DNA of 29,419 nucleotides from an uncultured Clostridia bacterium (GTDB lineage Bacteria > Acidobacteriota > Aminicenantia > UBA2199). Below are positions 8,077-29,419 of this stretch, piece by piece. Within the stretch, counting starts at the first letter, position 1. Every line of letters begins with the position of its first letter. The DNA is taken from positions 1 to 29,419 of the forward strand of contig CAYXCX010000001.1 of the NCBI GenBank assembly GCA_964463405.1, given 5' to 3'. The translations under genes and the position numbers were made by a program. Below the pieces are notes generated by a model that saw only the letters and a list, made by a program, of their open reading frames with translations, did not search any database and had not been told where the DNA came from.

Positions 8077-8183
8077 CCGGCCGGGATCCGAAACGGGCAG
8101 GAGCATCCCCAAGGCTAGTGTTGGCCAGCGCGATGAATGTTTTTTATGGCAGCCAAGCATTCCACAATTTGAATTCGATTCAA

Positions 8184-8212: not shown

Positions 8213-8239
8213 TATCCCGCGATCCCGGAGATGCAGCCG

Positions 8240-9199
8240 ATGAAAAAAACAGCTTTCCCCGCCGGCCTCTTTTTGCTCTCAGCCCTGGTCCTGTCCCCGG
8301 CCTGTTCGTTGCGCAGGCTGGCGCTGAACGGCGTGGCCAATGCCCTGACCGGCAGCTCCCAGGGCACCGTGTTCACCGGCGACAACGACCCCGAGCTCGT
8401 CGGCGACGCCCTGCCCTTCGCCATCAAGATGTACGAATCGCTGCTGGCGGCCAACCCCCGCCACCAGGGACTGCGGCTGACGACCGGCAGCCTGTACGTC
8501 ATGTACGCCAATGCCTTTCTGCAGACCCCGGCCTCGATGCTTCCCGAGGCGGAATACCTGGCCCAGGAATTCACTTACCAGAGGGCCAAAAACCTCTACC
8601 TGCGCGGCCGCGACATCATCCTCGACCTGCTGGAGATGAAGTATCCCGGCTTCCGCTCCAGGCTGGAGCGCAAGGACTACGCCGCTGCCCTGGCCGCCGC
8701 CCGGCGCCGCGACGCCCCGCTCCTCTACTGGGCGGGGGCTGGCTGGCTTGGCGGCTACGCCATCGATCCCTTCGACATGGACCTGGGGATGACCCTGCCG
8801 GCGGCCGCCGCCCTGATCGAGCGGGCCTACGAGCTCGATCCCGACTATGCGGCCGGCGCGCTGCACGAGTTCTACATCCTCTATTACGGCTCGCTGCCGG
8901 AGTACATGGGCGGCAGCCTGAAAAAGGCGCGCGAGCACTTCGCCAAGGCGCTGGCGGCGTCGGGCGGACGTTCGGCCACCCCCTACATCTCCCTGGCCAC
9001 GGCAGTGACCGTCAAAGAGCAGAACCTGGCCGAGTTCCGCGAGCTGCTGGGCAAGGCGCTGGCCATCGACCCCGACGCGGTCCCGGAAACCCGGCTCGTC
9101 GGAGCGCTGAACCGGCGCAAGGCACGGTGGCTTCTTGAGCACGCCAGTGACTTCTTCGTCGAGGCCGAGGATGCCGAGGGGGATAGCGAGGAGAAATGA
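8240..9199 (+). CDS. tatT: TRAP-T-associated TPR-like lipoprotein TatT
   Basis: GGAG 9 nt before ATG 8240 (alternative ATG 8231). Lipobox LSPA-C; DNDPELVGDALPFAIKMYESLL, LYVMYANAF and GGSLKKAREHFAKA motifs; sits directly upstream of a DctP gene. This is the real 3' part of the 6632..9199 ORF. Confidence 0.85.
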   Translation: MKKTAFPAGLFLLSALVLSPACSLRRLALNGVANALTGSSQGTVFTGDNDPELVGDALPFAIKMYESLLAANPRHQGLRLTTGSLYVMYANAFLQTPASMLPEAEYLAQEFTYQRAKNLYLRGRDIILDLLEMKYPGFRSRLERKDYAAALAAARRRDAPLLYWAGAGWLGGYAIDPFDMDLGMTLPAAAALIERAYELDPDYAAGALHEFYILYYGSLPEYMGGSLKKAREHFAKALAASGGRSATPYISLATAVTVKEQNLAEFRELLGKALAIDPDAVPETRLVGALNRRKARWLLEHASDFFVEAEDAEGDSEEK

Positions 9200-10188
9200 A
9201 CATGAAAAAATGCGCTTGGGCCTCATTCCTGCTGCTGGCGGCGCTCGCGCTGCCGGCGCAGGTGATCAAGATCGGCAGCATGGCCCCCGACCGCTCGCCA
9301 TGGGACGACGCCCTCAAGGAGATCGCCCGCGAATGGGAGAAGATCACACAGGGCCAGGTAAAGCTGAAGATCTACCCCGGCGGCATCGCCGGCGGCGAGG
9401 AGGACACGATCCGCAAGATGAAGGTCGGGACTCTGGGCGGCGCCGTCCTGACCAACATCGGCCTGACCAAGGTCAATCCCGACGCCTTTGTCCTCAGCAC
9501 CCCGTTCCTGTTCCACTCGGAGCAGGAGATGGCCTACGTCATGGAGCGGCTCACCCCGGTCTTCGAGAAGCAGATCGAGGAGAAAGGATTCAAGGTGGTC
9601 ATCTGGACCATGAGCGGCTGGGTGAATTTTTTCTCCAAGGCTCCGGTCCTCTATCCCCGCGACCTGAAGCCCCAGAAGCTGGCCATCAGCACCGGCGAGC
9701 CGGAGATGGAGCAGGCCTGGAAAAAATCGGGGTACCACATCGTGCCCAACGAGCTGAAGGACCTGATGATGGCGCTGCAGAGCGGCATGGTCGACGCCTT
9801 CTACCTGCCGCCATTGGTAGCCGGCTCTGGGCAGTACTTCGGCCTGGCTCGCCACATGAACTCGCTGAAAATCGCCCCGCTGGTCGGCGGGCTGGTGATC
9901 GTGGACCGCATCTGGAAGCGGATCCCCGACGTCCACAAGCCGGCCATGCAGGCCGTGGTGCAGCGCGTCTCCCGCAAGCTGGGCGGCGAAACCGATGCCC
10001 TGGAGCGGAAGGCCTTGGAATCGATGAAGAAGAACGGCCTTGTCATCCATGAACCCCCGGCCGACAGCCTGGCCCTGTGGAAGGAGACCGCCGAGCAGGG
10101 GATGGACGAACTGGTGGGCAAGGTCTTCAGCCGCGAGATCTATGACAGGCTGCTGGCCCTGCTCCAAGAATACAGGCAGAAAAAATGA
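9196..10188 (+). CDS. tatP: TRAP substrate-binding protein (DctP/TatP)
   Basis: Signal peptide then IKIGSMAPDRSPW; LKIYPGGIAGGE, PFLF and ALQSGMVDA motifs. ATGA overlap with tatT; ATG 9202 has better SD spacing. Confidence 0.9.
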   Translation: MNMKKCAWASFLLLAALALPAQVIKIGSMAPDRSPWDDALKEIAREWEKITQGQVKLKIYPGGIAGGEEDTIRKMKVGTLGGAVLTNIGLTKVNPDAFVLSTPFLFHSEQEMAYVMERLTPVFEKQIEEKGFKVVIWTMSGWVNFFSKAPVLYPRDLKPQKLAISTGEPEMEQAWKKSGYHIVPNELKDLMMALQSGMVDAFYLPPLVAGSGQYFGLARHMNSLKIAPLVGGLVIVDRIWKRIPDVHKPAMQAVVQRVSRKLGGETDALERKALESMKKNGLVIHEPPADSLALWKETAEQGMDELVGKVFSREIYDRLLALLQEYRQKK

Positions 10189-12053
10189 GCCTGGCCGGGT
10201 TCCGCAAAAATGCGCGCTGGCTGGAATCGCTCCTGGCCTTTCTCGCCATATTCCTGCTAGCGCTGTTCCCCAACCTGGAGGTGATCGCCCGAAAGTTTTT
10301 CCACACCGGGGTGCGCAATTCGACCGAGTTCACCCACCAGCTGGTCCTGGTGCTGGCTTTCATCGGCGCGGCCATCACCAGCCGGGAAAACCGCCACCTC
10401 TCCCTGACGCTGAACTTGAAGATGAAGCCTTCCCTGCTGTCGCGGGTGCAGGTCCTGAACGCCCTCGTCAGCACGGCCTTCGCCGCCGCCTTTGCCTGGT
10501 CGGCCCTCTCGTTCACCCTCAACGCCTTCGACCCGGGCGATGTGCTCTGGCTCATTCCCAAGCGCTGGATCGCCGCCGTCATGCCCCTGGGCTACGGCGT
10601 GGTGGCCTACCGCTTCGCCCGCCAGGCCCCGCGCGCCTGGGGCAAGGCCATCGCCGCCAGCGGTTTTTTGTTCGGCACGCTCCTGGCCCTGGAGCCGGCG
10701 GCCAACAGCGCGGCCGTCCTGGCGCCGGCGGCCGAGGGGCTGCTCCGGCCCCTGCTGCCGGCCTTCGCCTGGATCGGCGCCCACCTCTCCACGCCGATCA
10801 TCCTGCTGCTGCTGTTCGGCGCGGTCACCGGCCTGCCGATCTTCATCGTCCTGGGCGGCATCGGCTTCATGCTGTTCGCCCACGCCGCCCAGCCGCTGGA
10901 GGTGATCGCCAACGAGGCCTATTCCCTGCTGACCAGCCACTCGCTTCCGGCCATACCCCTTTTCACCTTCACCGGCTTTCTCCTCTCCGAGAGCAAGGCC
11001 GGCGAGCGCATCGTCCGCCTCTTCCAGGCGTTCTTCTCCTGGTTCCCGGGCGGACTGGCCCTGGTGGCCATCCTGGTCTGCACTTTTTTCACCACCTTCA
11101 CCGGCGCCTCCGGGGTCACGATCCTGGCCGTGGGCGGCCTCCTCTCCTACGTCCTGGTCCGCGGCGGATACGGGAAAAAATTCAGCTCCGGGCTGCTGAC
11201 CGCCGTGGGCAGCATCGGCCTGCTTTTCCCGCCCAGCTTGCCGGTCATCATCTACGGCGTGACGGCGCAGGTCAGCATCAAGGACATGTTCGTGGGCGGC
11301 ATCGTGCCCGGGATCGTCATGGTGCTGGCCATGGCCCTGCTCGGCATCCTGTACGCCAAGAAGCGGAAAGTCCCCCGCGAGCGCTTCGCCCCGCATGCGG
11401 CGCTGGCGTCGGCCGGCAGCGCCTTCTGGGAGATCCTGCTGCCGGTCATTATCGTCTGGGGGTATTTCGGCGGCATCACCACCCTGGTGGAGAGCGGCGC
11501 CGTAGCCGTCATCTACACGCTGGTGGTCGAGGTCTTGATCCACCGCGACATCAAGCCCCGCGACCTGGCGAACGTCATGCTCAAGTGCATGCCCATCATC
11601 GGCGGCGTGCTGGCCATCCTGGCCCTGGCCAAGGGCCTCTCCTATTATATCGTCGACGCCGAGATCCCCATGCAGCTCACCGCCTGGGTTCAGGGTGCCA
11701 TCCATTCCAAGTACGTGTTCCTGCTGCTGCTCAACCTGGCGCTGCTGGTCACCGGCTGCTTCATGGACATCTTCTCGGCGATCATGGTCGTCGTGCCGCT
11801 GATGATCCCCCTGGGCGACCTGTTCGGCATCCACCCCGTGCATCTGGGGATCATCTTTTTGGCCAACATGGAATTGGGCTACCTGACGCCGCCGGTGGGG
11901 ATGAACCTCTATCTGGCCGCCTACACGTTCAACGAGCCGATCGGCAAGATATACAAGGACGTGTTTCCCTTCCTCATGATCCAGCTGGCGGCGGTCCTGC
12001 TCATCACCTACGTCCCCTTCTTCGCGACCGGGCTGCTGGGCCTTGTAAAATAA
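10185..12053 (+). CDS. dctM: Fused TRAP small+large permease (DctQ-DctM)
   Basis: N-terminal 4-TM DctQ-like part (EVIARKFF...AFIGAA...RHLSL) followed by DctM motifs (AIPLF, GLLFPPSLP, GYLTPPVGMNL); 622 aa. Confidence 0.9.
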   Translation: MSLAGFRKNARWLESLLAFLAIFLLALFPNLEVIARKFFHTGVRNSTEFTHQLVLVLAFIGAAITSRENRHLSLTLNLKMKPSLLSRVQVLNALVSTAFAAAFAWSALSFTLNAFDPGDVLWLIPKRWIAAVMPLGYGVVAYRFARQAPRAWGKAIAASGFLFGTLLALEPAANSAAVLAPAAEGLLRPLLPAFAWIGAHLSTPIILLLLFGAVTGLPIFIVLGGIGFMLFAHAAQPLEVIANEAYSLLTSHSLPAIPLFTFTGFLLSESKAGERIVRLFQAFFSWFPGGLALVAILVCTFFTTFTGASGVTILAVGGLLSYVLVRGGYGKKFSSGLLTAVGSIGLLFPPSLPVIIYGVTAQVSIKDMFVGGIVPGIVMVLAMALLGILYAKKRKVPRERFAPHAALASAGSAFWEILLPVIIVWGYFGGITTLVESGAVAVIYTLVVEVLIHRDIKPRDLANVMLKCMPIIGGVLAILALAKGLSYYIVDAEIPMQLTAWVQGAIHSKYVFLLLLNLALLVTGCFMDIFSAIMVVVPLMIPLGDLFGIHPVHLGIIFLANMELGYLTPPVGMNLYLAAYTFNEPIGKIYKDVFPFLMIQLAAVLLITYVPFFATGLLGLVK

Positions 12054-12107
12054 GCAACTGGCGCAACATCAAACTGTAATCAAAGAACCTCTAAAAGAAA
12101 CGATCTC

Positions 12108-12139
12108 TTAGTGATAGTGATAGTGTTAGTGATAGTAGC
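12108..12139 (+). repeat. Hexamer array copy A, (W)TAGTG x5
   Basis: ttagtg atagtg atagtg ttagtg atagta at 12108-12137, in an AT-rich gap between convergent genes. Confidence 0.85.
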
Positions 12140-12183
12140 GAGCACTGGAACGATCTCTAAAAATATTCGCTAACTGAGTTCGC

Positions 12184-12217
12184 TGATTGCTGTTCCTAAC
12201 ACTAACATTATCACTAT
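12184..12217 (-). repeat. Hexamer array copy B (inverted) with ACAGCAATCA tail
   Basis: The reverse complement reads atagtg ataatg ttagtg ttagga acagcaatca. It is complementary to copy A at 20/22 positions and 29/34 identical to copy C. Confidence 0.85.
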
Positions 12218-12225
12218 TCTTCTGC

Positions 12226-13527
12226 CTATTCGAACTCGGGCGATTCGCCGACCAGCACCGCAATGACCTCGGGCTTGTCGTCGCTCTGCAGGATGAAGCT
12301 GCCCTCGATTCCCGCGATGCGGACGATCGGCGCGCCCTTGGCCGTGTGCGAAAGCCGGACCTCGGGGTACTGCAGGCGCATCTGGTCGAGGGTGCTGCCG
12401 ATGCCGATGCCATCCGCCGTCCGCAAGAGCGGGCTGACGACGGTGATGCCGCAGGCCAGCCCCCCCTTCTCGTACACGTAGAACAGCGGATCGCCGGCCG
12501 GATCGGTGATCTTGAATACGTCGCGGTAGGATTCGCCGACCAGCACTTTGCGCCGCAGGGCGCGCTGGGACTGCGGCAGCTTGCCGGCGATGCTGGCGAC
12601 CGGCGTGTCCAGCGCGACGGCGCCGACCCCGCGGGTGGAAATCAGCAGCCCGGCCTCGACGGGCTTGCCCCAAGGGCGCAGCGGCAGCAGCTGGCCGCGG
12701 AGGATGTTCTGGCCGGAAGGGGCCGGAAGCAGCTTGAATTCGAGGCCGGCGGCCTGCACTTCGGCCAGAACGCCCGCCAAGTCGGCCTTCTGCAACTCCT
12801 GCAGGACGCGGTCAACCGTCCTGATCATCCGTTTTTGCGGGGTAATGACCAAGACCTCGGCTTGGGTTACGGCTCCCTTCTCCAGCTTTTCCAGGGCGGT
12901 CACGCGAAACCCGCGGAATTCGCCTTTCGCCGTCCGCGCCGCCTGCCCGCCGCGGGCCGTCGTCTGCGCGCCGTTCAGGATGCGCACGCGGATGGCCAGC
13001 GCTTCGGCCAGGGCCGCCAGCTGCGGGTCGGCTTCCGGGGCCAGAAGCGGACCCGCCGGCCGCACGGCCAGCGGAACCTCGCCGGCGAAGGGCTCGGCAG
13101 TCAGCACCTGCTGCTCAAAACGCTTCTGGATGAGCGCCTTGCTGCGGGCGACGGCTGCCGCATAGCCATTCGGTTCGCCCGCTTGCTCCTCGGCTTCGGG
13201 CAACGGGCTTGCGGGCCGGACCGGCTCCTCCTTGCCCCCCCCCGAAGTGGCGACGATGACCAGCACCAGCAGCAAGCCCGCGACAGCGGCGATCATCCCC
13301 CAGACGCTCGCCGGCACAGGAGTCCGGGCCGGCCGCGCCGCGTAGGGGCGGTAGGTCGGCTGCGGCCGCGCCGCCGGCTCAGGCCGCCGGGATTGGCCGT
13401 CGTAGATGGTGGCGGGAGCCGGGCGGGTCTCCGCCACCATGGCCTCGGGGGGAAGGTTCAGCGGCGTCTCCGGCGGAGCCGGGGGCGCGCTCGGGTGATT
13501 GGGATCGGGAGGGGTGTTTTCTGCCAT
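12226..13527 (-). CDS. Hypothetical bitopic membrane protein (Pro-rich cytoplasmic N-tail, single TM, two extracytoplasmic domains)
   Basis: GGAG 6 nt before ATG 13527 (alternative 13533). GC-rich coding-like codon use; TM VWGMIAAVAGLLLVLVIVA; C-terminal RTADGIGIGSTL..Y motif. No family recognised. Confidence 0.75.
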   Translation of the reverse strand: MAENTPPDPNHPSAPPAPPETPLNLPPEAMVAETRPAPATIYDGQSRRPEPAARPQPTYRPYAARPARTPVPASVWGMIAAVAGLLLVLVIVATSGGGKEEPVRPASPLPEAEEQAGEPNGYAAAVARSKALIQKRFEQQVLTAEPFAGEVPLAVRPAGPLLAPEADPQLAALAEALAIRVRILNGAQTTARGGQAARTAKGEFRGFRVTALEKLEKGAVTQAEVLVITPQKRMIRTVDRVLQELQKADLAGVLAEVQAAGLEFKLLPAPSGQNILRGQLLPLRPWGKPVEAGLLISTRGVGAVALDTPVASIAGKLPQSQRALRRKVLVGESYRDVFKITDPAGDPLFYVYEKGGLACGITVVSPLLRTADGIGIGSTLDQMRLQYPEVRLSHTAKGAPIVRIAGIEGSFILQSDDKPEVIAVLVGESPEFE

Positions 13528-13543
13528 GCTCATCTCCGGCGAT

Positions 13544-13572
13544 AAAATAGTCCAGCGAGTATTTTTTGTCAA
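13544..13572 (-). promoter_or_regulatory. Sigma70-type promoter for the orphan gene (TTGACA-N17-TATTTT)
   Basis: Perfect TTGACA at 13572-13567, a 17-nt spacer, TAnnnT at 13549-13544. Confidence 0.65.
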
Positions 13573-13598
13573 CGCATAATGGGAGACAAAAAGAAACA

Positions 13599-13636
13599 AG
13601 TGATAGCGATAGTGGTAGTGGTAGTAACAGCAATCA
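13599..13636 (+). repeat. Hexamer array copy C with ACAGCAATCA tail
   Basis: agtg atagcg atagtg gtagtg gtagta acagcaatca; 26/30 identical to copy A (direct orientation) and inverted relative to copy B. Confidence 0.85.
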
Positions 13637-13649
13637 AAGAGCTTGTTCA

Positions 13650-13670
13650 ATAAAACCCTTGGCAAGGGCC
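13650..13670 (-). terminator. Putative intrinsic terminator of the glgA-trx-amrS operon
   Basis: Minus strand GGCCCTT-GCC-AAGGGTT followed by TTATT; about 80 nt downstream of the amrS stop. Confidence 0.45.
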
Positions 13671-13705
13671 TTTCACTTATACCTTTTTACTTTTGCCTTA
13701 TGCCT
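13671..13705. repeat. Degenerate heptamer tandem array (TWTRCCT-like x5)
   Basis: tttcact tatacct ttttact tttgcct tatgcct. Confidence 0.7.
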
Positions 13706-13747
13706 TGAGCGCGGAGCGCGCCTCTGGTTACGCGATACGCTGGCCCA

Positions 13748-14755
13748 TTATTGCCATACCCCGGCCACATGCGCCCCGCAGGCGGAGCAGGCCCCCGCGC
13801 TCAGCCCGGAGGCCGTCACCCGGTAGCCGCGGCGCTCGACCAGCGTTTTCCGGCAGCGCGGGCAACGGGTTTGGCTCCAGCGGTCATCGTCGAAATTACC
13901 CCCGTAAACAAAGCGAAGCCCACGCTGCTCCGCCCTTTCCAGGCAGCGGCGGATGGCTGCGGCCTCGGTCGGCGGCAGGCCGGCCATCTGGTGGCAGGGG
14001 AAAAAGCGCGAAACGTGCCAGGGGACATCGCCGCCCAGGCCGAACAGGAACCCGATCAAGTCCTCTATTTCGGCCGGATCGTCGTTCAGGCCCGGTATCA
14101 GCAGGGTGGTGACCTCGATCCAGATCCCCGCCGCCTTCATGGCGGCGATGGTCTCCAGGACCGGGCCGAGACGGGCGGAGCAATAGCGCTTGTAAAATTC
14201 GTCGCGAAAAGCCTTCAGGTCGATGTTGGCCCCGTCCAAAAACGGGGCGAGCAGCGCCAGGGCCTCGGGACCCAGGTAGCCGTTGCTGACCAGCACGTTG
14301 CGCAAGCCGGCCGCGCGGGCCTGTTGCGCCGTTTCCGCGACCAGTTCAAAAAACACCGTCGGCTCGGTATAAGTATAGGAGATCGAGCGGCAGCCGCCCT
14401 CCCGGGCCAGGGCCACCAGGCGCGCCGGGGTGAGGGCTTCGCCCTTGATGTCCTCTTCCTGCCGAACAACCGACAGGGAGTGGTTCTGGCAGAAGCGGCA
14501 GGAGAAGTTGCAGCCCATGGCGGCGACGGAGAAGGATCGCGATCCGGGCAGGAAATGATAGAGCGGCTTTTTTTCGATGGGATCTATGTTGGCGGCGGCG
14601 ACGCGGCCGGCGTTGAGCGAGATTAGCTGGCCGGCCGCGTTCTTCCTTACCCCGCACAGCCCCCGCTTGCCGGGGGCGATCCGGCATTGGTGGGCGCAGA
14701 GGCGGCAGCGCACCCAGCCGTCGCCCAATTTTTCGCCGAGAACCGCCTGGATCAT
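13748..14755 (-). CDS. amrS: AmmeMemoRadiSam-system radical SAM enzyme (PflA-like)
   Basis: N-terminal CxxCxxxC (CRLCAHQC) plus GLCGVR; DPIEKKPLYHFLPG; radical SAM GCNFSCRFCQN; SYTYTEPT; C-terminal CPRC and CSAC knuckles. Confidence 0.92.
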   Translation of the reverse strand: MIQAVLGEKLGDGWVRCRLCAHQCRIAPGKRGLCGVRKNAAGQLISLNAGRVAAANIDPIEKKPLYHFLPGSRSFSVAAMGCNFSCRFCQNHSLSVVRQEEDIKGEALTPARLVALAREGGCRSISYTYTEPTVFFELVAETAQQARAAGLRNVLVSNGYLGPEALALLAPFLDGANIDLKAFRDEFYKRYCSARLGPVLETIAAMKAAGIWIEVTTLLIPGLNDDPAEIEDLIGFLFGLGGDVPWHVSRFFPCHQMAGLPPTEAAAIRRCLERAEQRGLRFVYGGNFDDDRWSQTRCPRCRKTLVERRGYRVTASGLSAGACSACGAHVAGVWQ

Positions 14756-20948: not shown

Positions 20949-22205
20949 TCAACCGCCGGCGCTGACCTTCACGTCGCCATAGACGTTGCGCACGCGGATT
21001 TCAGGCTTGCCCCCGTCGCGGTTGGCGAACGACTCCTCCTTTTCCTCGTAGCTCTCCAAGCCCAGGCCCGGCGGGACGCGGATGCGGCCGTGGACCGCCT
21101 GAATGCTGAACGTCGGATCGACCAGGGCCGCGAAGGACAGGTCAAGGTCGGCGTGGCTGCCGCTGATGTTGACCCGCTCGTCAATCCGGTCGGCCAGCAG
21201 GGCCAGCCTGCCGTTTTTCAGCGCCACGTCGAGGCTGGCGCCGGCAAAGCCGGAAATGGCCACGTCGGCGTAGGAATTCTCGACCATTACCGCACGGGCG
21301 GACAGGCGGCGCAGCTCGATGCGCCCCGAGCGGCAGGAAACGCTCACGTCTCCGGCGGCGTCTTCCAGGATGACCGGCGCATAGTGGCTGGTCACCACGG
21401 CTCCGGCGCCAAGGTGGGCGGCCCGGATTTGCCCATGCCGCGCCTTGGCTTCCAGCCGCTCGGCGCCGTCCAGCTCCAGCTTGCCGTAGGCCAACTCGAC
21501 GGCGGCGCGGCCGGCGACGCCGCGGACGACGAAGTCGCTGTGCCGGCCGTCGAGCCGGACGGCCGCGACGTCCTGCACGAAAACCTTAGCCCGCATGGCT
21601 CGGATTTCGGCTTCGCCGGCCACCCCCTTGATCCGGGCTGTGCCGTTGCTCAGCCGCAGCCTGGCACCGGCAGAAGCGTTCTCCAGCACCAGGTCGCCGT
21701 TTTTCAGCTCGACCTCCAGGGCCCCGCCCGCGTCGCGCAGGATGACGTCCCCCTCCTGGTTGGCGACGGCCAGGGGGATGCCGGGGGGAACCTCCAACCG
21801 CAGCAGGACGCGCAGGCGCCGGTAGGGAAACGGCGAGGGCGCCCCGACCGACACCTGCAAGGTGCCGTCGACCATCCGCCCCTGCGCCTGGACCTCAGGC
21901 TCCAGGCGAGCCGGGGCCTCCTTTCCCGCATGGTAGACGCGAACCCAGGAGGATAAGTGCACTTGGCCGTCGGCGGACGCGCCGACCAGGACTTCACCGG
22001 CGGGGTTGACGACGGCGATGCGGCTCACCCCGGAAAAGCCTTGCTGGAGACCGGGAAACTCGCTGAACCGGGTCCCCTGCGGCCGCCGGTCGCCGGCATA
22101 AAAGGAGAAATCCCTGGCCATGCGCTCCCGCCCCTTTTCCACCGCCTGATAGAGAAGGCCGAAGGCGATCAGGGCCAGGACCAGGAAAATTTCCTTGCGT
22201 TTCAT
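20949..22205 (-). CDS. DUF4097-like (toast-rack/LiaG-YvlB-like) membrane-anchored protein
   Basis: N-terminal TM (IFLVLALIAFGLLY) and repeated short beta motifs (NPAGEV, NQEGDV, KNGDL, SNGTA, AYGKL, RHGQI, RSGRI, NVYGDV); ATGA overlap with the upstream gene. Confidence 0.8.
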   Translation of the reverse strand: MKRKEIFLVLALIAFGLLYQAVEKGRERMARDFSFYAGDRRPQGTRFSEFPGLQQGFSGVSRIAVVNPAGEVLVGASADGQVHLSSWVRVYHAGKEAPARLEPEVQAQGRMVDGTLQVSVGAPSPFPYRRLRVLLRLEVPPGIPLAVANQEGDVILRDAGGALEVELKNGDLVLENASAGARLRLSNGTARIKGVAGEAEIRAMRAKVFVQDVAAVRLDGRHSDFVVRGVAGRAAVELAYGKLELDGAERLEAKARHGQIRAAHLGAGAVVTSHYAPVILEDAAGDVSVSCRSGRIELRRLSARAVMVENSYADVAISGFAGASLDVALKNGRLALLADRIDERVNISGSHADLDLSFAALVDPTFSIQAVHGRIRVPPGLGLESYEEKEESFANRDGGKPEIRVRNVYGDVKVSAGG

Positions 22206-22387
22206 GATTTCTTCTTGGCGAATAGATAGATGTTCTTCAGGCCGATGAAGATCAGGATCATGGGCCAATACTTGCCCAGCAGCCGCCAGACATTGACCTC
22301 CAGCCCGAAATTCTTCAGCAGGAAGAGCATGCCCAGCGCCAGAATGATCAAGCCCCAGGCCAGGGATTCCTTTTTATTGCTTGCCAT
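22202..22387 (-). CDS. Small LiaI/LiaF-like TM protein (DUF5668)
   Basis: 61 aa, two TMs, WGLIILALGMLFLL...YWPMILIFIG pattern; overlaps both neighbours. Confidence 0.8.
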   Translation of the reverse strand: MASNKKESLAWGLIILALGMLFLLKNFGLEVNVWRLLGKYWPMILIFIGLKNIYLFAKKKS

Positions 22388-22856
22388 GGCCGCCCTCCTC
22401 GCGTTTGTAATAGTCGAAAACGATCTTGATCCCGAAGGCGATGAGCGCCAGGGGCCAGAGCCGCGTGACCTGGCGGAACGAAAACAGGCCGAAGTTGACC
22501 AGTTGGAAAAGAACCCCGATCACCAGCACGGCCACGGCCGAGAACAGGGAGAGTTCCTCCCCTGGCGCCGGCGATTTCTCGGCCTGCCCCGCCCGGTTCA
22601 GGGCGTTGGCCTCGTTGTAGCTGTCGATGATCTGGTAGATGTAGAAGCCGGCGATCATAAGCCCAAACACGGCCGAATCGGCGCCATCGGCATTGCTGGT
22701 CAGGACGATCAGGACGGCGAAAACCAGCATGAAAGTGAGCCCCTTGACAAAATTGCCGTTGTAGACGGCTCCCATTCCAGGAAAGATCGCCAGAAACGCG
22801 GCCAAAGAGGAGTTTTTCTCCCGCGGCCCCCTGCTGGATTCGGTGCTGCTAGCCAT
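22374..22856 (-). CDS. TM2-like + LiaF-like (DUF5668) membrane protein
   Basis: AAGGAGG SD before ATG 22856; AFLAIFPGMGAVYNG...KG TM2-like motif; C-terminal LWPLALIAFG. Confidence 0.75.
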   Translation of the reverse strand: MASSTESSRGPREKNSSLAAFLAIFPGMGAVYNGNFVKGLTFMLVFAVLIVLTSNADGADSAVFGLMIAGFYIYQIIDSYNEANALNRAGQAEKSPAPGEELSLFSAVAVLVIGVLFQLVNFGLFSFRQVTRLWPLALIAFGIKIVFDYYKREEGGHGKQ

Positions 22857-23382
22857 TTCTTCCTCCTTGGTCAAAACCGTCGCTTTTCCACTTCTCTTCC
22901 TGGTCGTTTTCCTGAATTTGCAGCGATTTTTTTCCGAAAAAAGTGAAAAATATCAATTCTTTCGATTCCTTGAATTGCTCCAGCCAGCCGCCGGTCCTGA
23001 CCGCGAATCGTTCGACCGACGAGACCAGCGAATGCATCTGGCGGTTGGCGGCCGGGAAGACATTGGTGAAATAGAACAAATTCAGGAACAGCACCACCGT
23101 GCCGACCGCCGCCGCCAGCCAGGAGGGGAAATAGCGGCGCCGGGCCGCGACTTCTTTCTCGACGGCATCCGGGATGTTGTATAGGCGGTTCTTGAGAAAG
23201 AACGGCACCTCCTCCTGAAGCTCGGCGAGGCTGCCGAGAAGATCCTCCATCCTTTCTTTTTTCGCCTGGCAGGCAGCGCAGCCGCGCAGATGCGTTTCGA
23301 GGTCGGCGGCGGCGTCCCCGGGCAGCTCGTTTTCCAGATAGGCCGAGAGCCGGGACTCGAATTCCCTGCACTTGCTGCTCAT
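22849..23382 (-). CDS. Zinc-binding anti-sigma factor (zf-HC2/ZAS) with TM
   Basis: CREFESRLSAYL...HLRGCAAC (HxxxCxxC), followed by a TM segment; directly downstream of the ECF sigma. Confidence 0.9.
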   Translation of the reverse strand: MSSKCREFESRLSAYLENELPGDAAADLETHLRGCAACQAKKERMEDLLGSLAELQEEVPFFLKNRLYNIPDAVEKEVAARRRYFPSWLAAAVGTVVLFLNLFYFTNVFPAANRQMHSLVSSVERFAVRTGGWLEQFKESKELIFFTFFGKKSLQIQENDQEEKWKSDGFDQGGRNG

Positions 23383-23918
23383 GTCCCCTCCCGCAAGTAC
23401 GATTCAGCCAGCTTCAGCCGGGCGCGGTTGATCCGCGACTTGACCGTCCCTTCGGGGATCGAGAATTTCTCGGCGATCTCCTGGTAGGACATGTCGTTGA
23501 TGTCGCGCATGATGAGGATGACCCGCAAATCGGGGTCCAGTTTGGCGATTTTTTTCCTCAGCAGTTCAAATTCCGACTCCCTGGCCAGCTTCTCCTCTGG
23601 AGTTGGCGCGCCGCTGCCGATATTTTCATCCAATTCCTGGGAATTTTCCAGGTGTTTACGGTTTTTTCGCCAATAATCGATGCAATAATTGCGCGAAACC
23701 GCGAAAACCCAGGAGGTAAAACTCTTCTCCTCCTTGAATTTGTCCAGATTGTGGTAGAGTTTGATGAAGATCTCCTGGGTGACGTCAGAAGCGATGTCCC
23801 GCTCGGCAAAGAAGTTCAGCGCGATGTTGTAGACCGACTTGGAATAGGCGTTAATCAGCATGTTCCACGCCTCCCTGTCGTTCTCGCGGCACCGGGACAA
23901 GACATCGGTTATTTCCAT
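23379..23918 (-). CDS. ECF sigma factor (SigW/RpoE-like)
   Basis: Region 2 (ASDVTQEIFIKLY, FTSW...SRNYCIDYWRK) and region 4 (MSYQEIAE...GTVKSRINRARLKL). Confidence 0.94.
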   Translation of the reverse strand: MEITDVLSRCRENDREAWNMLINAYSKSVYNIALNFFAERDIASDVTQEIFIKLYHNLDKFKEEKSFTSWVFAVSRNYCIDYWRKNRKHLENSQELDENIGSGAPTPEEKLARESEFELLRKKIAKLDPDLRVILIMRDINDMSYQEIAEKFSIPEGTVKSRINRARLKLAESYLREGT

Positions 23919-23927
23919 ACACACCAA

Positions 23928-23982: not shown

Positions 23983-25101
23983 TCACGTCACCACCCGGGG
24001 AATCAGGGGGTTGATGCGCGACAACACTTCATAATTGATGGTCCCGGCCCATTCGGCCAGCATGTCCGCGTCGATCCGCTCCTGGCCCTCGTTCCCCAGC
24101 AGGGTAACCGGGTCTCCGGCCTTCACTCCGGGCACGTGGCTGACGTCAGCCATGAACATGTCCATGCAGACCCTGCCGCGCACCGGCGCCTTGACGCCGT
24201 GGACCAGGATTTGGGAGGCGTTGGACAGCTTGCGGTCGTAGCCGTCGTAATAGCCCACCGGGATCACGACGATCCTGGACTTGGCGAAGGCCTTGTAGGT
24301 CAGGCCATAGCCGATCGCCGCCCCCTTGGCCACGGTCTTGACCTGGGCCACCTTGGCGTGCCAGCTCAGCACCGGCTTCAGGGCGATGCCCTGCTTGTGC
24401 TTTTCCAAGTACAGGGCGTGGGTCTGCCGCGAAGGCCAGTAGCCATAGGCCGATATCCCCACCCGGGCCATGTCGAAATGGGTCTCGGGAAAGAGCAGGG
24501 TCGACGCCGAGCTGGAGAAATGGCGGCAGGCACCGCCCCCCTTCAGCCGCCGTAATAGGCCGCGGAACAGCTTGAGCTGGCCCTGGGCGAAGGCCGGGTC
24601 GGTCGTGTCCTCGATGTTGGCGAAATGGGAATAGACGCCGCAAAGCTCGACCCGCTCCGGGTTCAGCCGCTGCAGCAGGGCGACGGCCCTGCCGGGATCG
24701 ATGCCCAGGCGGTTGGTCCCGGTCTCGATCTTGAGATGGACCCGGGCCCTGCGCCCGACCCGCGTCGCGGCGGCCAGCAGCCAGCGCAGGTGCTCCTCGG
24801 AGGGGACGACCGCCTCGAACCCCCGCCGCAGCAGCTCGTCCAGTTCATCCCGGTCGCTCCAGCCGAGGATCAGCACCGGCTTGTCGGCAACCAGTTCGCG
24901 GACCGCCAGCGCTTCGGCCAGCGAATCGACGGCATAGCGCCCGACAGCGGTTGAGCGGCGGGCGATCTCCACCACCGGGCGCAAGCCGTGGCCGTAGGCG
25001 TTGGCCTTGACCACGAACATCAGCGGCGCCCGGGTCAGGCGCTGGAACTGCCTGAGGTTGTGGAGCAGGTTGGCGGCGTTCAGGGCGACGTGGGTCTTCA
25101 T
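23983..25101 (-). CDS. alr: Alanine racemase
   Basis: VVKANAYGHG (PLP lysine), VHLKIETG.NRLG, YSHFA, RVG...YG, IGYG.TY, GYYDG, GRVCMD and GTINYE motifs. Confidence 0.96.
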   Translation of the reverse strand: MKTHVALNAANLLHNLRQFQRLTRAPLMFVVKANAYGHGLRPVVEIARRSTAVGRYAVDSLAEALAVRELVADKPVLILGWSDRDELDELLRRGFEAVVPSEEHLRWLLAAATRVGRRARVHLKIETGTNRLGIDPGRAVALLQRLNPERVELCGVYSHFANIEDTTDPAFAQGQLKLFRGLLRRLKGGGACRHFSSSASTLLFPETHFDMARVGISAYGYWPSRQTHALYLEKHKQGIALKPVLSWHAKVAQVKTVAKGAAIGYGLTYKAFAKSRIVVIPVGYYDGYDRKLSNASQILVHGVKAPVRGRVCMDMFMADVSHVPGVKAGDPVTLLGNEGQERIDADMLAEWAGTINYEVLSRINPLIPRVVT

Positions 25102-25175
25102 GTTCGCGGCGGCGACGGCTGGCTTTTGCGCTTCATTGTGGGCCTCGATTTGATTCCGGCGTTCTTAAGATATTC

Positions 25176-25181
25176 TATAAT
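25176..25181 (+). promoter_or_regulatory. -10 box (TATAAT) upstream of the barrel-PKD operon
   Basis: Perfect TATAAT in a very AT-rich divergent gap; no -35 at canonical spacing (TTGATT is 20 nt upstream). Confidence 0.4.
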
Positions 25182-25227
25182 AAAATTAATAATTGAGATA
25201 CAAGCCGTTGCAAAGCTATTTTCAAGT

Positions 25228-27168
25228 ATGGTATTTTCGGCCCACAGGGAGTTGAACAGGGCAAAAACAACAGCGTGGAGCGCCGTACTCTGTTTGCTGG
25301 CCTTCTCGGCTGCGGCCCAATCGCCGGTGCGGATGAACACCCTGCCCCGCGTCGAGCGCCTGCCCGACCAGGTCGTCATCCGCATCAGCCCGCGGCCCGA
25401 GCACGGGGCCTATTTCCTCCACTACCGCACCGAGGGCATGACCGGCTACCAGGTGCGCAAGATGCAGCAAGAGGCCTCGGGGGCGTTCAGCTGCCGCATC
25501 GCCATTGCCAACCTCTACGGCAAGGACATCGAATTTCGCGTGGTCGAAAAGAAGGGTTCCGGAGAAGCCGCCGTTTCGCTCAGCCACACGGTGGCCGGCT
25601 TTACCCGCCAGGAGTCGCCGGAGATCTATTTCCAGGAGGCCGGCGACGCCGCCGCCCCCGCGCGCCGCTGGCAGCCGCCGCTGAACGTCAACGCCTCGCT
25701 GTCGACGGCGACCAAGCTGGACGAGAACAACGACAGCGGCTATTACCAGCAGAACTACACGGCCAACGGCAACCTGCGCATCTACAAGAACATCGCCAAG
25801 AATGACACCCAGATCGATTTCGACACCAACTTCAACCACCTGGACCCCTGGAACGAAGAGACCGAGAACCGCGTCAACCTGTCCAGCATGATGGTGCGCT
25901 TCAAAAAGGGCGCCATGCAGATCGAGGCGGGCGACGTGGCGGTCAACGCCACCGAGTTCACCACTTCCTACCTGAACCGCCGCGGCTTGCGCTTCGAATA
26001 CGCCGGCAAGAGCCTGTACTTGAACTCCTTCTACACGAATTCCCAGCAGAAGACCGGCTTTGACGGCTACGGCATCCCCGATTCCAAGGCCGGCATCTTC
26101 GGCGCCGTGGCCGGATTCAACCTGAAGAACACCCTGACGGTGCGCGGCCTGGTCATGACCGGCCGCGACAACCTGGTCAGCAAGACCGTCTACAGCGCCG
26201 ACGAGTACCGCAAGGGCAGCATGTTCTCCCTCTGGAGCGAACTGAGCCTGCTGCGCAACAGCCTGCAGGTCACCGGCGAGATTTCCTCCAGCACCTACGG
26301 CGCCGCCGCCAGCCAGGAGGAGATCGAGACGGCCAACGACACCGCCTGGAAGGCGGGGCTGCGCTTCCAGCGCGGCATCCTCTCCTTCTCCGCCGACTAC
26401 GAGGATATCGGCGACCACTTCCAGTCGATCGCCAACCTCTTCCTGCAGAACGACCGCGAAGGCCTCAGCACCAACCTGGGGCTCAGCATCAAGTCCTTCT
26501 CCTGGAACCTCAGCTATGTCGACAAGAAGAACTACATGAACAACCCGCTGCAGGACATGCTGCACCAGCGCCGGGCCGGCACCACGCTGAACTGGGGCCT
26601 GGGCCGCCACTTCCGCGTCGGCGCCGACGTGTCCCGCGACAACCTCGACTACGACTCCTCGACCGGGCTGCAGACGTCAACCTCGGACATGAACACCTAC
26701 AATTACAGCGCCTCGCTGGGCTACATGGCCGGAGCGACCGGCGTCAATCTCAACGTGGGCCGGACCGAATCGGTGAATTTCAGCTCCAACCTCACCGCCT
26801 CGCTCTCGCTGAACCTGCGCTTCGGCAAAGTGGTCACCCTGAACCCAACGCTCAGCTTCCAAGAGAATGAAGCCTTAAGCGACGGCAGCAAATCGACCGT
26901 GTACAACGCCTTCGTCAGCTCCGAGATCACCTTCATCCCCCAGTACCTCACCCTGACCGTCTCCTCCTCCTACATGAGCAACGAAGGCGCCTTGAGCAAG
27001 AGCGCCAGCTGGACGGCGGGCTGCAACCTGAACTTTTTCGCCGCCAAGCTCTTCAAGGACAAGGTCCGTCCCTCGCTCTCCCTTAAATCGATGTTCCAGG
27101 GGGCCAAAACCGGGGACATCAAAACCGATTCGTCCATCTTTCATCTCCAGGCAGATATCGCTTTCTAA
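25228..27168 (+). CDS. Predicted large outer-membrane beta-barrel protein with an N-terminal soluble domain, function unknown
   Basis: Signal peptide ending AAA-Q; about 100-aa soluble domain; about 500 aa of amphipathic strands rich in N/S/T/Y/G; C-terminal beta-signal-like FHLQADIAF. Start uncertain (ATG 25228 or TTG 25252). Confidence 0.75.
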   Translation: MVFSAHRELNRAKTTAWSAVLCLLAFSAAAQSPVRMNTLPRVERLPDQVVIRISPRPEHGAYFLHYRTEGMTGYQVRKMQQEASGAFSCRIAIANLYGKDIEFRVVEKKGSGEAAVSLSHTVAGFTRQESPEIYFQEAGDAAAPARRWQPPLNVNASLSTATKLDENNDSGYYQQNYTANGNLRIYKNIAKNDTQIDFDTNFNHLDPWNEETENRVNLSSMMVRFKKGAMQIEAGDVAVNATEFTTSYLNRRGLRFEYAGKSLYLNSFYTNSQQKTGFDGYGIPDSKAGIFGAVAGFNLKNTLTVRGLVMTGRDNLVSKTVYSADEYRKGSMFSLWSELSLLRNSLQVTGEISSSTYGAAASQEEIETANDTAWKAGLRFQRGILSFSADYEDIGDHFQSIANLFLQNDREGLSTNLGLSIKSFSWNLSYVDKKNYMNNPLQDMLHQRRAGTTLNWGLGRHFRVGADVSRDNLDYDSSTGLQTSTSDMNTYNYSASLGYMAGATGVNLNVGRTESVNFSSNLTASLSLNLRFGKVVTLNPTLSFQENEALSDGSKSTVYNAFVSSEITFIPQYLTLTVSSSYMSNEGALSKSASWTAGCNLNFFAAKLFKDKVRPSLSLKSMFQGAKTGDIKTDSSIFHLQADIAF

Positions 27169-27180
27169 ATGAGGATGAAC

Positions 27181-29238
27181 ATGAAAAAAATCACATGTCT
27201 TCTCATGATTTTAATGGGGCCGGCCGCATTCCTCGCGGCCATCACCATAACTCCATCATCGGCAACGATCAATGTTGCCGGACAGATCACCGCCACGCTT
27301 TCCTGCGTGTACGGCCTTTCCGGCACCATGGACTGGGGCGACGGCAGCGCCCTTTGGAGCGGACTCGATTCCTCATTCAATTATCCGACCCCTCAAACCC
27401 ACACCTACCGAAACCCCGGCACATTCACCCTGCATTTCCATCGCCTTTCTATTTCCGGCTGCCCGCAGGACGAGTACGCGACGCTAAGGGTGCTGGAGAA
27501 CCGGAGCGTGAGCGTGTCGCCGCTGAGCCCCTCCGTGGGGCAGACGGCGACGTTCACGGCGGTCAACTTCCAGACCCCGGACAACATCACCTGGAACATG
27601 GGCGACAACACGGTATACGCCAACCGCGGCACGACGATCACCCACACCTTCGCCAAGAGCGGCCAGTACCTGGTACGGGCCTTCGACTGGAACGGCAACA
27701 CCAAGACGACGCCGGTCAGCCTGACCGTGACCGTCAATGATGCGCAGCCCATGATCCTCTATTCGCCGGCCGCGCCGCGCGTCGATCAGGAGGTCGCCAT
27801 CCAGGCGCTGAACATGAACAGCGACTCGGTCAAGTGGAATTTCGGCGACGGCTCCCAGCCCCAGGTCCTTTCGCCGGCGGTCGCCCATCGCTACCAGAAG
27901 GAGGGGACGTTCACCATCACCGCCCGCGCCGGCGAGCAGCCAACCGTGTCCCGGCCGATCACCATCCTCCCCGAGAACCGTTCGCTGGCGGTCTCTGCCA
28001 GCGAGGCCAGGGCCGACGAGCCCGTGACCGTGACCGCCGTCAACTTCCGCGGCCCCCAGGTGCTGTGGGACTTCGGCGACGGCAGCACGGCGGCCACCGC
28101 TCCGGCCGCCACGGCCGCCGCGCGCATCGGCGCCTTTCCCGGCCCGTTCTCCGTCAGCCACGCCTACAAGATCCCCGGCACCTACACCGTCACCGCCCGC
28201 GACGAGAACGGCGCCAGCGCCAAGAGGTTCACGGTTCCCGTGCGCATCCTGGGCATCAGCGACCAGGTGAACCTGGAGCTGGCGGAGCTCACCCTGGACA
28301 ACGGCAAGTACTACAAGGTCGTGCCCAGGAATTCCAAGTCCATCCGCGCCCGGCTGCGGATGAAAATGCGCGGCACCGGAATCGTCTCGGGCTACTGGAT
28401 CGTGAACGGCCATCCCGCATATTTCTTCAGCGAGACCGTCTACCAGGGGCAGATCAAGGCCATCCTCACCCCCGAGGTTCCCGGACTGCCGGCGTTCGAC
28501 CCCGGCTTGAACACCATCACCGTGCAGCTGACCAGGCCGGCGAACGGGGGGGCGGTCTTCCCCACCCTGCGCTATTACGTCCTGCCCTACGAGAACGTGA
28601 TCGCCGTTCTTGCCCCCAAGGACGGCGCCATCCTCAAGGAGGACGAAGAGGCGGTCTTCTCCTGGGAGCGGGCCCTGGGCGGGTCGCGCTACCAGATCGC
28701 CTTCGCCGCCCTGTTCCCGCTGCTGCGCAACGAGGAAGGCGTCGCCTGGCGCGAGTGCCCCGAAAGCCTCCGCTACACGGCCGATGCCGAAACCTGGGCG
28801 GCGATCCCGCGCAACAGCTGGACCTACTGGAAAGTGCGGGCCCTCGACGGCGCCGGCAACACCGTGGCCGAAAGCGAGGTGCAGGAGATGAAAGTGATCG
28901 TCCCCGGCGCCCAGGTGGGCATCGAGAAGATCACCGACTTGGACGGCCGGCCGGCCGCGGTCGGCCCCGGCTATGCCGCGGCCCGGGCAGAGCGATTGCT
29001 GGTCCACGGCCTCCTCACCTATCCGGCCGAGGCCGAATACCTGGTCCTGCGCGTCTATGCCGGCGGGGAGCTGATCGACCAGCTCCTGTTCCGCGACGTG
29101 GCCCGCGGCGTGCCGCGGCCGTTCGAAACGTCGGTGCCCAACCCGGGCGGCGAGACGCTGGTGACCTTCCAGGTGCTGAAATCCTCCTCGCCGTCGGTCC
29201 TGGTCGGGTACCAAGAGCTGCGGCTGAAAAAGGACTGA
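27181..29238 (+). CDS. Secreted multi-PKD/Ig-like domain protein
   Basis: Signal peptide MKKITCLL...AFLA; four PKD cores (WGDGS near 27331, WNMGDN near 27592, WNFGDGS near 27835, WDFGDGS near 28066), each followed by an H.Y/F...G.Y/F motif; FN3-like YWKVRALDGAG. Alternative starts at 27169 and 27175. Confidence 0.85.
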   Translation: MKKITCLLMILMGPAAFLAAITITPSSATINVAGQITATLSCVYGLSGTMDWGDGSALWSGLDSSFNYPTPQTHTYRNPGTFTLHFHRLSISGCPQDEYATLRVLENRSVSVSPLSPSVGQTATFTAVNFQTPDNITWNMGDNTVYANRGTTITHTFAKSGQYLVRAFDWNGNTKTTPVSLTVTVNDAQPMILYSPAAPRVDQEVAIQALNMNSDSVKWNFGDGSQPQVLSPAVAHRYQKEGTFTITARAGEQPTVSRPITILPENRSLAVSASEARADEPVTVTAVNFRGPQVLWDFGDGSTAATAPAATAAARIGAFPGPFSVSHAYKIPGTYTVTARDENGASAKRFTVPVRILGISDQVNLELAELTLDNGKYYKVVPRNSKSIRARLRMKMRGTGIVSGYWIVNGHPAYFFSETVYQGQIKAILTPEVPGLPAFDPGLNTITVQLTRPANGGAVFPTLRYYVLPYENVIAVLAPKDGAILKEDEEAVFSWERALGGSRYQIAFAALFPLLRNEEGVAWRECPESLRYTADAETWAAIPRNSWTYWKVRALDGAGNTVAESEVQEMKVIVPGAQVGIEKITDLDGRPAAVGPGYAAARAERLLVHGLLTYPAEAEYLVLRVYAGGELIDQLLFRDVARGVPRPFETSVPNPGGETLVTFQVLKSSSPSVLVGYQELRLKKD

Positions 29239-29242
29239 GCGG

Positions 29243-29419
29243 TCAGGCCGTCCGCTTCAGCTGCCCCAGGAGCAGGAACAGGAAGAACGGCGCACCCAGC
29301 AGCGACGTGACGATGCCCACCGGAATCTCCAGCGGCGGCAGGAGCGAGCGGGCCAGGAAATCGGCCGCGACCAGCAGCCCGCCGCCGAGCAGCGTCGTGA
29401 AGGCGACCGTCGGCCGGTA
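29243..29419 (-). CDS. FecCD/BtuC-family iron-siderophore/cobalamin ABC permease, 3' end only
   Basis: My translation of the minus strand is [58 protein letters not shown], the canonical AD..AR...P.E.PVG.VT.L.GAPFF terminus. Absent from the ORF track. Confidence 0.9.

Follow-up and report, generated by a model that had tools for sequence, protein, structure and literature searches.

Outer-membrane β-barrels that are encoded together with their own secreted partner are known from ushers, two-partner secretion, FapF and MtrAB. Ushers pass immunoglobulin (Ig)-fold proteins through their pore in the folded state, and the lumen of this barrel class is wide enough for folded Ig-like domains. In the Mtr complex (PDB 6r2q), MtrB sheathes a partner protein, and MtrC is a lipoprotein. 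Other outer-membrane proteins, such as SlpA and OmpM, connect the outer membrane with the peptidoglycan, and LptE serves as the plug of LptD. To our knowledge, it is largely unknown how diderm bacteria outside the Proteobacteria and Bacteroidota place non-lipidated proteins on their surface. Here, we analysed a DNA stretch of 29,419 nucleotides (GenBank assembly GCA_964463405.1, contig CAYXCX010000001.1, positions 1 to 29,419; hereafter the window) from an uncultured bacterium that is assigned to the Aminicenantia. Aminicenantes are abundant in anaerobic digesters and sediments, and we know of no cultured representative. The window carries a two-gene unit, in which a gene for a large outer-membrane barrel (gene 1) is followed by a gene for a secreted protein with PKD domains and three C-terminal β-sandwich domains, which we call C1, C2 and C3 (gene 2). 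An initial annotation had described both open reading frames (ORFs) on the forward strand, as the ORF list confirms, and had suggested that they constitute an undescribed pair of barrel and cargo. The pair has the defining features of none of the four systems named at the outset.

We propose that the products of the two genes are cognate and form a barrel-partner complex, by which an array of PKD domains is anchored and probably also exported; we assign this reading a probability of roughly 0.45. The cognate complex is indicated by the strict linkage of the genes in a single operon, by the nearly equal divergence of the barrel and the C1-C3 module, and by a large plug-less barrel with conserved outward loops. 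It is further supported by the nearest structural relative, MtrB, which sheathes a partner, and by the lack of other means of attachment in gene 2. The physical interaction, the surface exposure and the translocation are the parts of this reading that we infer. As judged from family scans, neither the barrel nor C1-C3 is covered by a curated family model, and a literature search on this barrel/PKD partner family in Aminicenantes retrieved no paper. The negative family scans and the conserved neighbour thus support the earlier suggestion of an undescribed pair.

Close homologues of the barrel (at least 166, about 635 aa) are all annotated as hypothetical and all stem from metagenome-assembled genomes (MAGs) of the Aminicenantes type, while at least 180 orthologues of gene 2 were retrieved at E ≤ 1e-30 (662-939 aa). 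A survey of one genome per species yielded 33 barrel loci, again all in Aminicenantes-type MAGs. The pairing count leaves out five contigs that end too early; in all 30 loci with enough downstream DNA, tblastn and domain hidden Markov models (HMMs) located a partner with PKD and C1-C2-C3 downstream of the barrel. The partner follows directly in 29 of the 30, and in the other one (L015) an extra gene for a secreted-looking protein of 720 aa (9950-12109) lies between. This pairing spans two clades, with barrel identities of 60-83% (clade A) and 42-49% (clade B), and unrelated genomic contexts. A UBA2190 MAG contains two barrel genes (L004 and L010), each with its own partner, and most loci of the more distant clade B also encode an upstream paralogue with PKD repeats and C1-C2, which results in a partner-barrel-partner trio. 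In L031, a second full partner copy (PKD-C1-C2-C3; 13606-15462) follows 2.4 kb after the first one, and no second barrel is detectable. Judged by gene order, the pairing of barrel and partner is far beyond chance. The partner orthologue of L001/L021 (contig_133880) is split by a frameshift (11927-13940), and the alr gene of the same contig is in three pieces (8722-9842); these breaks look like indel errors of a long-read assembly and not like pseudogenes.

Sequence identities indicate that the barrel and C1-C3 diverge at a nearly equal rate and that the PKD part diverges faster. Identities to the window proteins were 83/79, 73/72, 60/62 and 45/50% for barrel and C1-C3, respectively, and 65, 56, 46 and 38% for the PKD part in the same comparisons. 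Overall, the PKD part ranges from 34 to 65% identity, versus 48-79% for the C-terminal module, and the number of PKD repeats varies between relatives.

The pairing extends into a wider superfamily. An exhaustive profile search with the barrel returned 320 representative clusters at E ≤ 1e-3 and 182 at E ≤ 1e-10, mostly of 620-770 aa. Pfam and NCBIfam scans placed these remote members in no known barrel family. They carry other Ig-like N-terminal domains, either PKD or Big_13, and retain the loop motifs GLGRRG, SQQxxGFxGxGxP, GKDDP, SIGxxxFxxDRxG and DNVxxDP; the motifs of loops L4 and L7 (residues 271-284 and 400-412 of the window protein) are shared by 30 close and 48 remote sequences. In a sample of nine remote genomic contexts (E 1e-13 to 1e-102), a tightly spaced co-directional gene lies downstream of the barrel in eight, and in six of the nine (within L039-L045) the C1 HMM detects a C1-bearing protein encoded 5-100 nt downstream. 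The products of these six genes are PKD-repeat proteins, two shorter proteins in which the PKD match is weak or single (one of them cut by the contig end) and an 825-aa protein (L041, 2535-5012) with the order PKD - C1/C2-like - Peptidase_S8 (subtilisin). A seventh context (L037, 2226-4541; P0274) encodes a fusion in which PKD (residues 36-93) and a C1-like domain (residues 118-221) precede the barrel. Of the two other contexts, one is truncated by the contig end within the PKD part of its downstream gene; the last one has no co-directional gene downstream. The conserved neighbour that the initial annotation would have predicted is therefore present in 30 of 30 family loci and, as a C1-bearing gene or C1 fusion, in seven of nine remote loci. 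Because the C1 HMM matches in remote loci, C1 can be regarded as the hallmark of the barrel partner across the superfamily, and by this sequence criterion the partner is a conserved family defined by C1, not arbitrary cargo. We propose a family that consists of a barrel of about 500 aa with the motifs SQQxxGFxGxGxP and SI(A/G)xxFxxDRxG behind an Ig-like domain, and of an adjacent co-directional gene with a signal peptide, PKD domain(s) and C1; the sequences of the window pair show all of these features.

The regulatory signals predicted around the pair indicate an autonomous two-gene transcription unit. The AT-rich promoter region that had been noted ahead of gene 1 was recovered as a conserved element of 12 genomes in an alignment of 166-nt upstream regions from the window and 11 orthologous loci (Table 1). 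Within 24900-29419, two sigma70-like promoter matches were found versus 0.4 expected, both in this AT-rich stretch, and a promoter and terminator scan detected neither element between gene 1 and gene 2. Transcription is predicted to start near 25244. The start codons of both genes need revision. Gene 1 had been started at ATG 25228, which is present in an open frame that reaches back to 24988 (24988/25228..27168, forward strand). The canonical start of the barrel gene is nevertheless 25258, because an ATG follows GGGAG after 6 nt in 11 of 11 orthologues, because T at 25259, which restores ATG, is found in four independent public assemblies, and because ATG 25228 falls within the conserved extended -10 element. 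In the window, positions 25258-25260 read AGG, and the G at 25259 is either a private (strain) variant or an assembly error; a second private difference is present at 25268 (C in the window, A elsewhere). The in-frame upstream ATG keeps the gene callable in the window, and the signal peptide is intact from either start; AGG, if it is a strain variant, would force the use of ATG 25228. The zero gap between the genes also stands only in part: TAA 27166-27168 does abut ATG 27169-27171, but gene 2 most likely starts at ATG 27181, which gives a 12-nt spacer with a ribosome-binding site. This start is indicated by its Shine-Dalgarno sequence, by the orthologues, which in the loci checked begin with MKK 9 nt past the barrel stop (12 nt in the window), and by a database entry of 685 aa that is 99% identical to gene 2. 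The tight linkage of both genes is maintained, as the 9-12 nt spacer is accompanied by no internal promoter or terminator.

Gene 1 has no Pfam match at E ≤ 1, and thus none to Plug, POTRA, Usher or Autotransporter, and no meaningful match in the NCBIfam scan; its profile, built from 30 homologues, returned only noise against PDB sequences. Tested against known families, the barrel therefore has no sequence match to porins, TonB-dependent receptors, ushers, TpsB/Omp85, LptD, MtrB or autotransporters. An AlphaFold2 model, which is based on a 30-sequence alignment (predicted local distance difference test, pLDDT, 72; predicted template modelling score, pTM, 0.51), translates the initially described Sec signal, soluble N-terminal domain and strand region of about 500 aa into a signal helix, a β-sandwich (residues 41-123, pLDDT about 80-88) and 26 strands (residues 153-645). 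No plug is inserted in this model, in line with the earlier view that gene 1 lacks plug, POTRA and autotransporter features. The longest insert between barrel strands comprises 18 residues and the chain stops at the last strand, which argues against a usher-type plug and against C-terminal domains. The terminal Phe, correctly read as a β-signal, is conserved in at least 90% of the homologues. Strong conservation is also seen in the linker motif ESPEIYFQ, where P131 and F135 are invariant and Y134 is nearly so. The Ig-like N-terminal domain is presumed to be periplasmic. Its origin as a paralogue of the C1-C3 docking module was considered and dropped, as hhalign detected no similarity to C1, C2 or C3.

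A Foldseek search of the gene 1 model against the PDB returned only large barrels. MtrB (6r2q_B, 649 aa) was best by template modelling (TM) score (0.49/0.49), and the ushers FimD and PapC had the lowest E-values (1.8e-7) with TM-scores of 0.31-0.37. LptD (0.32-0.34), TonB-dependent receptors (about 0.36) and SlpA (about 0.28) were also matched. When conservation was mapped on the model, the most conserved segments were the loops after odd-numbered strands: the top-residue fraction is 0.70-0.85 in L3, L4, L5, L7 and L9, compared with about 0.45 in L1, L2, L6 and L12. As both barrel termini are taken to be periplasmic, these loops would face outward or fold into the lumen. In the model, conservation thus peaks in long loops that are predicted to point outward, a pattern that diffusion porins do not usually show.

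Gene 2 encodes a protein that has a Sec signal without a lipobox, and its four PKD domains together with C1, C2 and C3 account for the approximately seven Ig-like domains counted before. It also lacks a recognisable anchor, as was claimed: no anchor-type family model was matched in the Pfam and NCBIfam scans, and the chain ends without an anchor motif. The C-terminal region of 329 aa has no Pfam, NCBIfam or PDB sequence match, also when C1-C3 was scanned alone, and Foldseek of the C1-C3 model (43-sequence alignment, pLDDT 90, pTM 0.75) retrieved only generic tandem Ig/FN3/macroglobulin arrays. A lipoprotein partner of the MtrC, LptE or SusD type was rejected, since neither downstream nor upstream partners contain a lipobox. 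Within gene 2, the GC content rises to 0.72-0.74 at window positions 27850-28150, which encode an Ala/Thr-rich insertion, STAATAPAATAAARIGAFPGP, in a loop of the fourth PKD domain; this insertion is missing in the L001 orthologue.

Table 1. Features of the barrel-partner unit; positions refer to the window, residues to the respective protein.
Feature	Position	Strand	Residues	Basis and remarks
AT-rich conserved promoter region	25176..25237	+		blocks invariant or nearly so in 12 upstream regions
Block TATAAT-AAA (alignment: TATAAYAAA)	25176-25184	+		12-region alignment
Block TTGAGATA	25193-25200	+		12-region alignment
-35-like element TTGCAA (alignment: TTGAAA)	25208-25213	+		12-region alignment
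Extended -10 element TGgTATTTT (alignment: TGnTATTTT)	25229-25237	+		18-nt spacer from -35
Shine-Dalgarno GGGAG and canonical barrel start	25247-25251; start 25258-25260	+		12-region alignment
Gene 1, outer-membrane barrel protein	25228..27168	+	646 aa from ATG 25228; 636 aa from conserved start 25258	ORF
Sec-type signal peptide of gene 1, ..AWSAVLCLLAFSAAA|QS, no lipobox	25228..25317	+		sequence; modelled helix at residues 2-29
N-terminal β-sandwich (Ig-like), about 85 aa	25339..25602	+	38-125	AlphaFold2, 8 strands, pLDDT 77-88
Linker, about 28 aa, motif (K)ESPEIYFQ	25603..25683	+	126-152	low pLDDT in model
Predicted 26-stranded antiparallel β-barrel, end ..LQADIAF (β-signal)	25684..27165	+	153-646	DSSP on model
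Loop L3			239-249	strongly conserved
Loop L4, NSQQKTGFDGYGIPDSKA / NSQQKTGFDGYGIP	26038..26091	+	271-288	mean top-residue fraction 0.85; among the two most conserved
Loop L5			316-326	strongly conserved
Loop L7, GDHFQSIANLFLQND / SIANLFLQND	26410..26454	+	395-409	conservation 0.85; among the two most conserved
Loop L9			476-487	strongly conserved
Shine-Dalgarno GAGGA and probable gene 2 start	27171-27175; ATG 27181-27183	+		sequence, orthologues
Gene 2, secreted partner	27169..29238	+	689 aa from ATG 27169; 685 aa from ATG 27181	ORF
Four PKD domains	27241..28248	+	25-360	Pfam PKD E 2.8e-28, PKD_4; four WxxGD(G/N) motifs
C1 β-sandwich	28252..28602	+	362-478	model pLDDT about 90
C2 and C3 β-sandwiches, end ..LRLKKD	28606..29232	+	480-582 and 583-688	model pTM 0.75

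In the mechanism that we favour, both proteins would cross the inner membrane via Sec, and the barrel would then be inserted into the outer membrane by BAM with the help of its C-terminal Phe β-signal. It would form a wide, plug-less pore of 26 strands, with the Ig-like N-terminal domain left in the periplasm and loops L3, L4, L5, L7 and L9 lining the outer mouth or the lumen. The partner would dock on or in the barrel through its C1-C3 module, and the faster-evolving PKD array with its variable repeat number would protrude from the cell, serving as a stalk for binding or adhesion. The barrel would thus be the anchor and, most likely, also the outer-membrane route for the folded Ig-like domains. 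PKD arrays and subtilases are typically extracellular. The surface exposure of the array, with the barrel as anchor and probable conduit, is suggested by the variable PKD stalk, by the subtilase-bearing relative and by this usual extracellular location of PKD arrays.

Several observations weigh against such a complex. The barrel model is only moderately confident, and the conserved loops have the lowest pLDDT of the barrel. How open the lumen is and where the N-terminal domain lies are accordingly uncertain in the model, and this domain could itself plug the barrel. The loop motifs recur in remote relatives with different partners, and the loops may thus serve an intrinsic barrel function instead of partner binding. 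We see neither an energy source nor a chaperone for the export. The few 151-nt contigs from RNA runs, with a depth of 2 on both genes, are too weak for demonstrating co-transcription. Finally, the P0274 fusion could be natural or an assembly artefact and hence has little weight: it is located on a short Logan contig and is the sole fusion among 149 representatives.

A first alternative to the cognate export and display complex is a nutrient-uptake complex, which we consider rather unlikely. Here, the barrel would be a large TonB-independent oligomer channel, while the PKD protein, together with the upstream paralogue in clade B, would capture the substrate, similar to SusC/D/E/F but without plug or lipid anchors. 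Indeed, two alpha-amylase genes, of which one weakly matches SusG_C, immediately precede the L002 unit, but the glycan-gene context is not conserved; clade A units lie beside alr and an extracytoplasmic function (ECF) sigma operon, and the other loci differ again. PKD domains often bind polysaccharide or protein substrates, although the window partner contains no carbohydrate-binding module and no enzyme domain. Generic porin models (Porin_4, maltoporin, chitoporin) are among the weak matches, and specific channels, too, typically have conserved loops that fold inward. Yet a partner without a lipid anchor would still need the barrel as its anchor, and thus the uptake model overlaps with the complex that we favour.

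Still less probable, in our view, is an envelope-structural complex, in which the PKD/C1-C3 protein would be periplasmic and would act either as a plug of the barrel, comparable to LptE, or as its tether to the cell wall or the inner membrane, comparable to SlpA and OmpM. The plug-less 26-strand pore would need some seal, and a barrel with an even number of strands places both termini and the Ig-like N-terminal domain in the periplasm. In the P0274 fusion, PKD-C1 precedes the barrel and, if it is not threaded through, would also lie in the periplasm. Deinococcus SlpA barrels are among the Foldseek matches, and remote members weakly match Pfam SlpA_C; on the other hand, both proteins lack peptidoglycan-binding domains (SLH, OmpA_C, LysM) according to Pfam and NCBIfam scans. 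The variable number of PKD repeats and their faster divergence are more in keeping with a surface-exposed array than with a strut in the periplasm, and a subtilase-bearing partner would be odd in the periplasm.

Cell-surface signalling, in which the N-terminal domain of the barrel reports partner or ligand occupancy to the zf-HC2 anti-sigma/ECF sigma pair, as in FecA-FecR-FecI, appears very unlikely. Its basis is an ECF sigma gene, with or without an anti-sigma gene, that neighbours the unit in every clade A locus, in L024 and in three of the nine remote loci (L037, L041, L043). In L037, an ECF sigma gene, an anti-sigma gene and two small ORFs precede the fusion, and in L041 an ECF sigma/anti-sigma pair follows the subtilase-bearing partner. 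The ECF sigma genes at the remote loci are unrelated (only 25-30% identity), and the clade A loci and L024 all share synteny of the barrel unit with the block of alr, ECF sigma and anti-sigma. The association of ECF sigma and barrel is thus recurrent, but not universal: a sigma operon is missing from most loci of clade B and from the second paralogue of UBA2190. The sigma operon of the window is oriented divergently to the unit, with alr in between, and the conserved promoter of the unit is sigma70-like and not ECF-like. There is also no STN or FecR domain, and the anti-sigma operon has its own DUF4097/LiaF-type sensors.

A divergent form of a machine that is already described, namely a chaperone-usher pilus or an MtrCAB-type electron conduit, has hardly any probability left despite the top Foldseek ranks of FimD/PapC by E-value and of MtrB by TM-score with the same strand count, because the family membership tests essentially refute both and the conduit is rejected by the absence of the haem motif CXXCH from gene 1 and gene 2.

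The genes around the unit lie outside of it. On the opposite strand upstream are alr, encoding alanine racemase (23983-25101), the ECF sigma factor gene (23379-23927), the zf-HC2 anti-sigma gene (22849-23382) and, beside the sigma/anti-sigma genes, a gene for a DUF4097 protein (20949-22268). Downstream, a convergent gene for a FecCD-type permease has its stop about 5 nt past the gene 2 stop. DNA near-identical to the window is present in wastewater and sludge metagenomes. Elsewhere in the window, an ordinary gene pair encodes an NfeD-type membrane protease and an SPFH/Band 7 protein (1294-3325) and is followed by a gene for a SPOR-domain protein (3326-3904). A 421-aa ORF on the forward strand (5366-6631) without a Pfam match sits between the apolipoprotein N-acyltransferase gene and the gene for an 855-aa TAtT-domain protein, which heads a TRAP transporter cluster (6632-12053). 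Another ORF without a Pfam match, encoding 478 aa, is located on the reverse strand (12226-13665).

For the surface placement of non-lipidated proteins in diderms outside the Proteobacteria and Bacteroidota, the pair is a compact candidate for a new display or export route. We regard it as possible, if doubtful, that it constitutes a distinct outer-membrane route in which a plug-less 26-strand barrel threads and then retains a co-encoded partner that is recognised via C1. Such a route may be modular, with PKD arrays or a subtilase as payload, and widespread in Aminicenantes and related uncultured lineages, considering the 320 clusters. The strictly conserved, autonomous module combines a docking-type domain (C1) with a very large barrel and consists of just two genes, which lend themselves to heterologous co-expression; complex prediction can draw on sequence pairs from at least 30 genomes, together with a much larger number of metagenome contigs.

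Compared with described systems, the pair shares individual features with several of them. TonB-dependent receptors combine a Plug (PF07715) with a 22-strand barrel (PF00593), whereas gene 1 has no Pfam match, an 85-aa β-sandwich and 26 strands. In two-partner secretion (TpsB/FhaC and TpsA), a barrel gene is likewise followed directly by a single cognate secreted partner, but TpsB/Omp85 proteins have POTRA domains, 16 strands and TPS-domain cargo; gene 1 has no POTRA, Bac_surface_Ag or ShlB match, and gene 2 has no TPS/haemagglutination match. Classical and inverse autotransporters (type V) have 12-strand barrels to which gene 1 shows no Pfam match, although the partner core that precedes the barrel in P0274 is autotransporter-like. 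The LptD-LptE pair is similar in its 26 strands, its N-terminal β-rich periplasmic domain and a co-functioning partner, which in the case of LptE sits in the lumen. In contrast to LptD, gene 1 has no OstA (PF03968) or LptD (PF04453) match in Pfam and NCBIfam and a lower TM-score to it than to MtrB; moreover, LptE is a small lipoprotein encoded elsewhere, and LptD functions in lipopolysaccharide insertion.

The cargo of the type IX secretion system (T9SS) resembles the partner in that variable payloads, here PKD arrays and in one relative a subtilase, are combined with a conserved β-sandwich module that is tied to an outer-membrane barrel. Unlike T9SS cargo, neither gene 2 nor C1-C3 alone matches an NCBIfam sorting domain, and C1 is internal in the subtilase partner. 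Each barrel has its own partner, while T9SS employs one shared translocon, and no T9SS genes are present in the window.

Ushers (FimD/PapC, PF00577) are also large barrels with a periplasmic N-terminal domain that are encoded with Ig-fold proteins, and the initial annotation had called the pair usher-like. This analogy is weak. Ushers have 24 strands, an inserted plug and two C-terminal domains, none of which is found in the 26-strand model of gene 1; they require a PapD-like chaperone, single-domain pilins and donor-strand exchange. In the window, the partner is a 689-aa protein with seven domains, the neighbours are alr, the ECF sigma/anti-sigma genes and the FecCD permease gene, and no PapD-like chaperone gene is found. 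Gene 1 has no PF00577 match in Pfam, a search of PDB sequences with the profile of the barrel family yielded no match, and its TM-scores to ushers are below that to MtrB.

The closest likeness is to MtrB (PF11854, MtrB_PioB). The differences are clear: the window protein has no PF11854 match, and one remote relative has a sub-threshold match (E 0.006); the window partner is an all-β Ig-like chain without haem-binding motifs, the barrel has an additional Ig-like N-terminal domain, and no partner here is a lipoprotein. Nonetheless, as far as a model of moderate confidence can tell, both barrels share the 26-strand fold, the best TM-score and almost the same length (649 versus 646 aa). MtrB accommodates a co-encoded partner protein in or on its lumen, and the two related flanking partners in clade B recall the arrangement of mtrC-mtrA-mtrB. 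Thus, even if the barrel only anchors its partner or is plugged by it, the pair would still represent a non-cytochrome example of the MtrAB-like architecture in which a barrel sheathes a protein.

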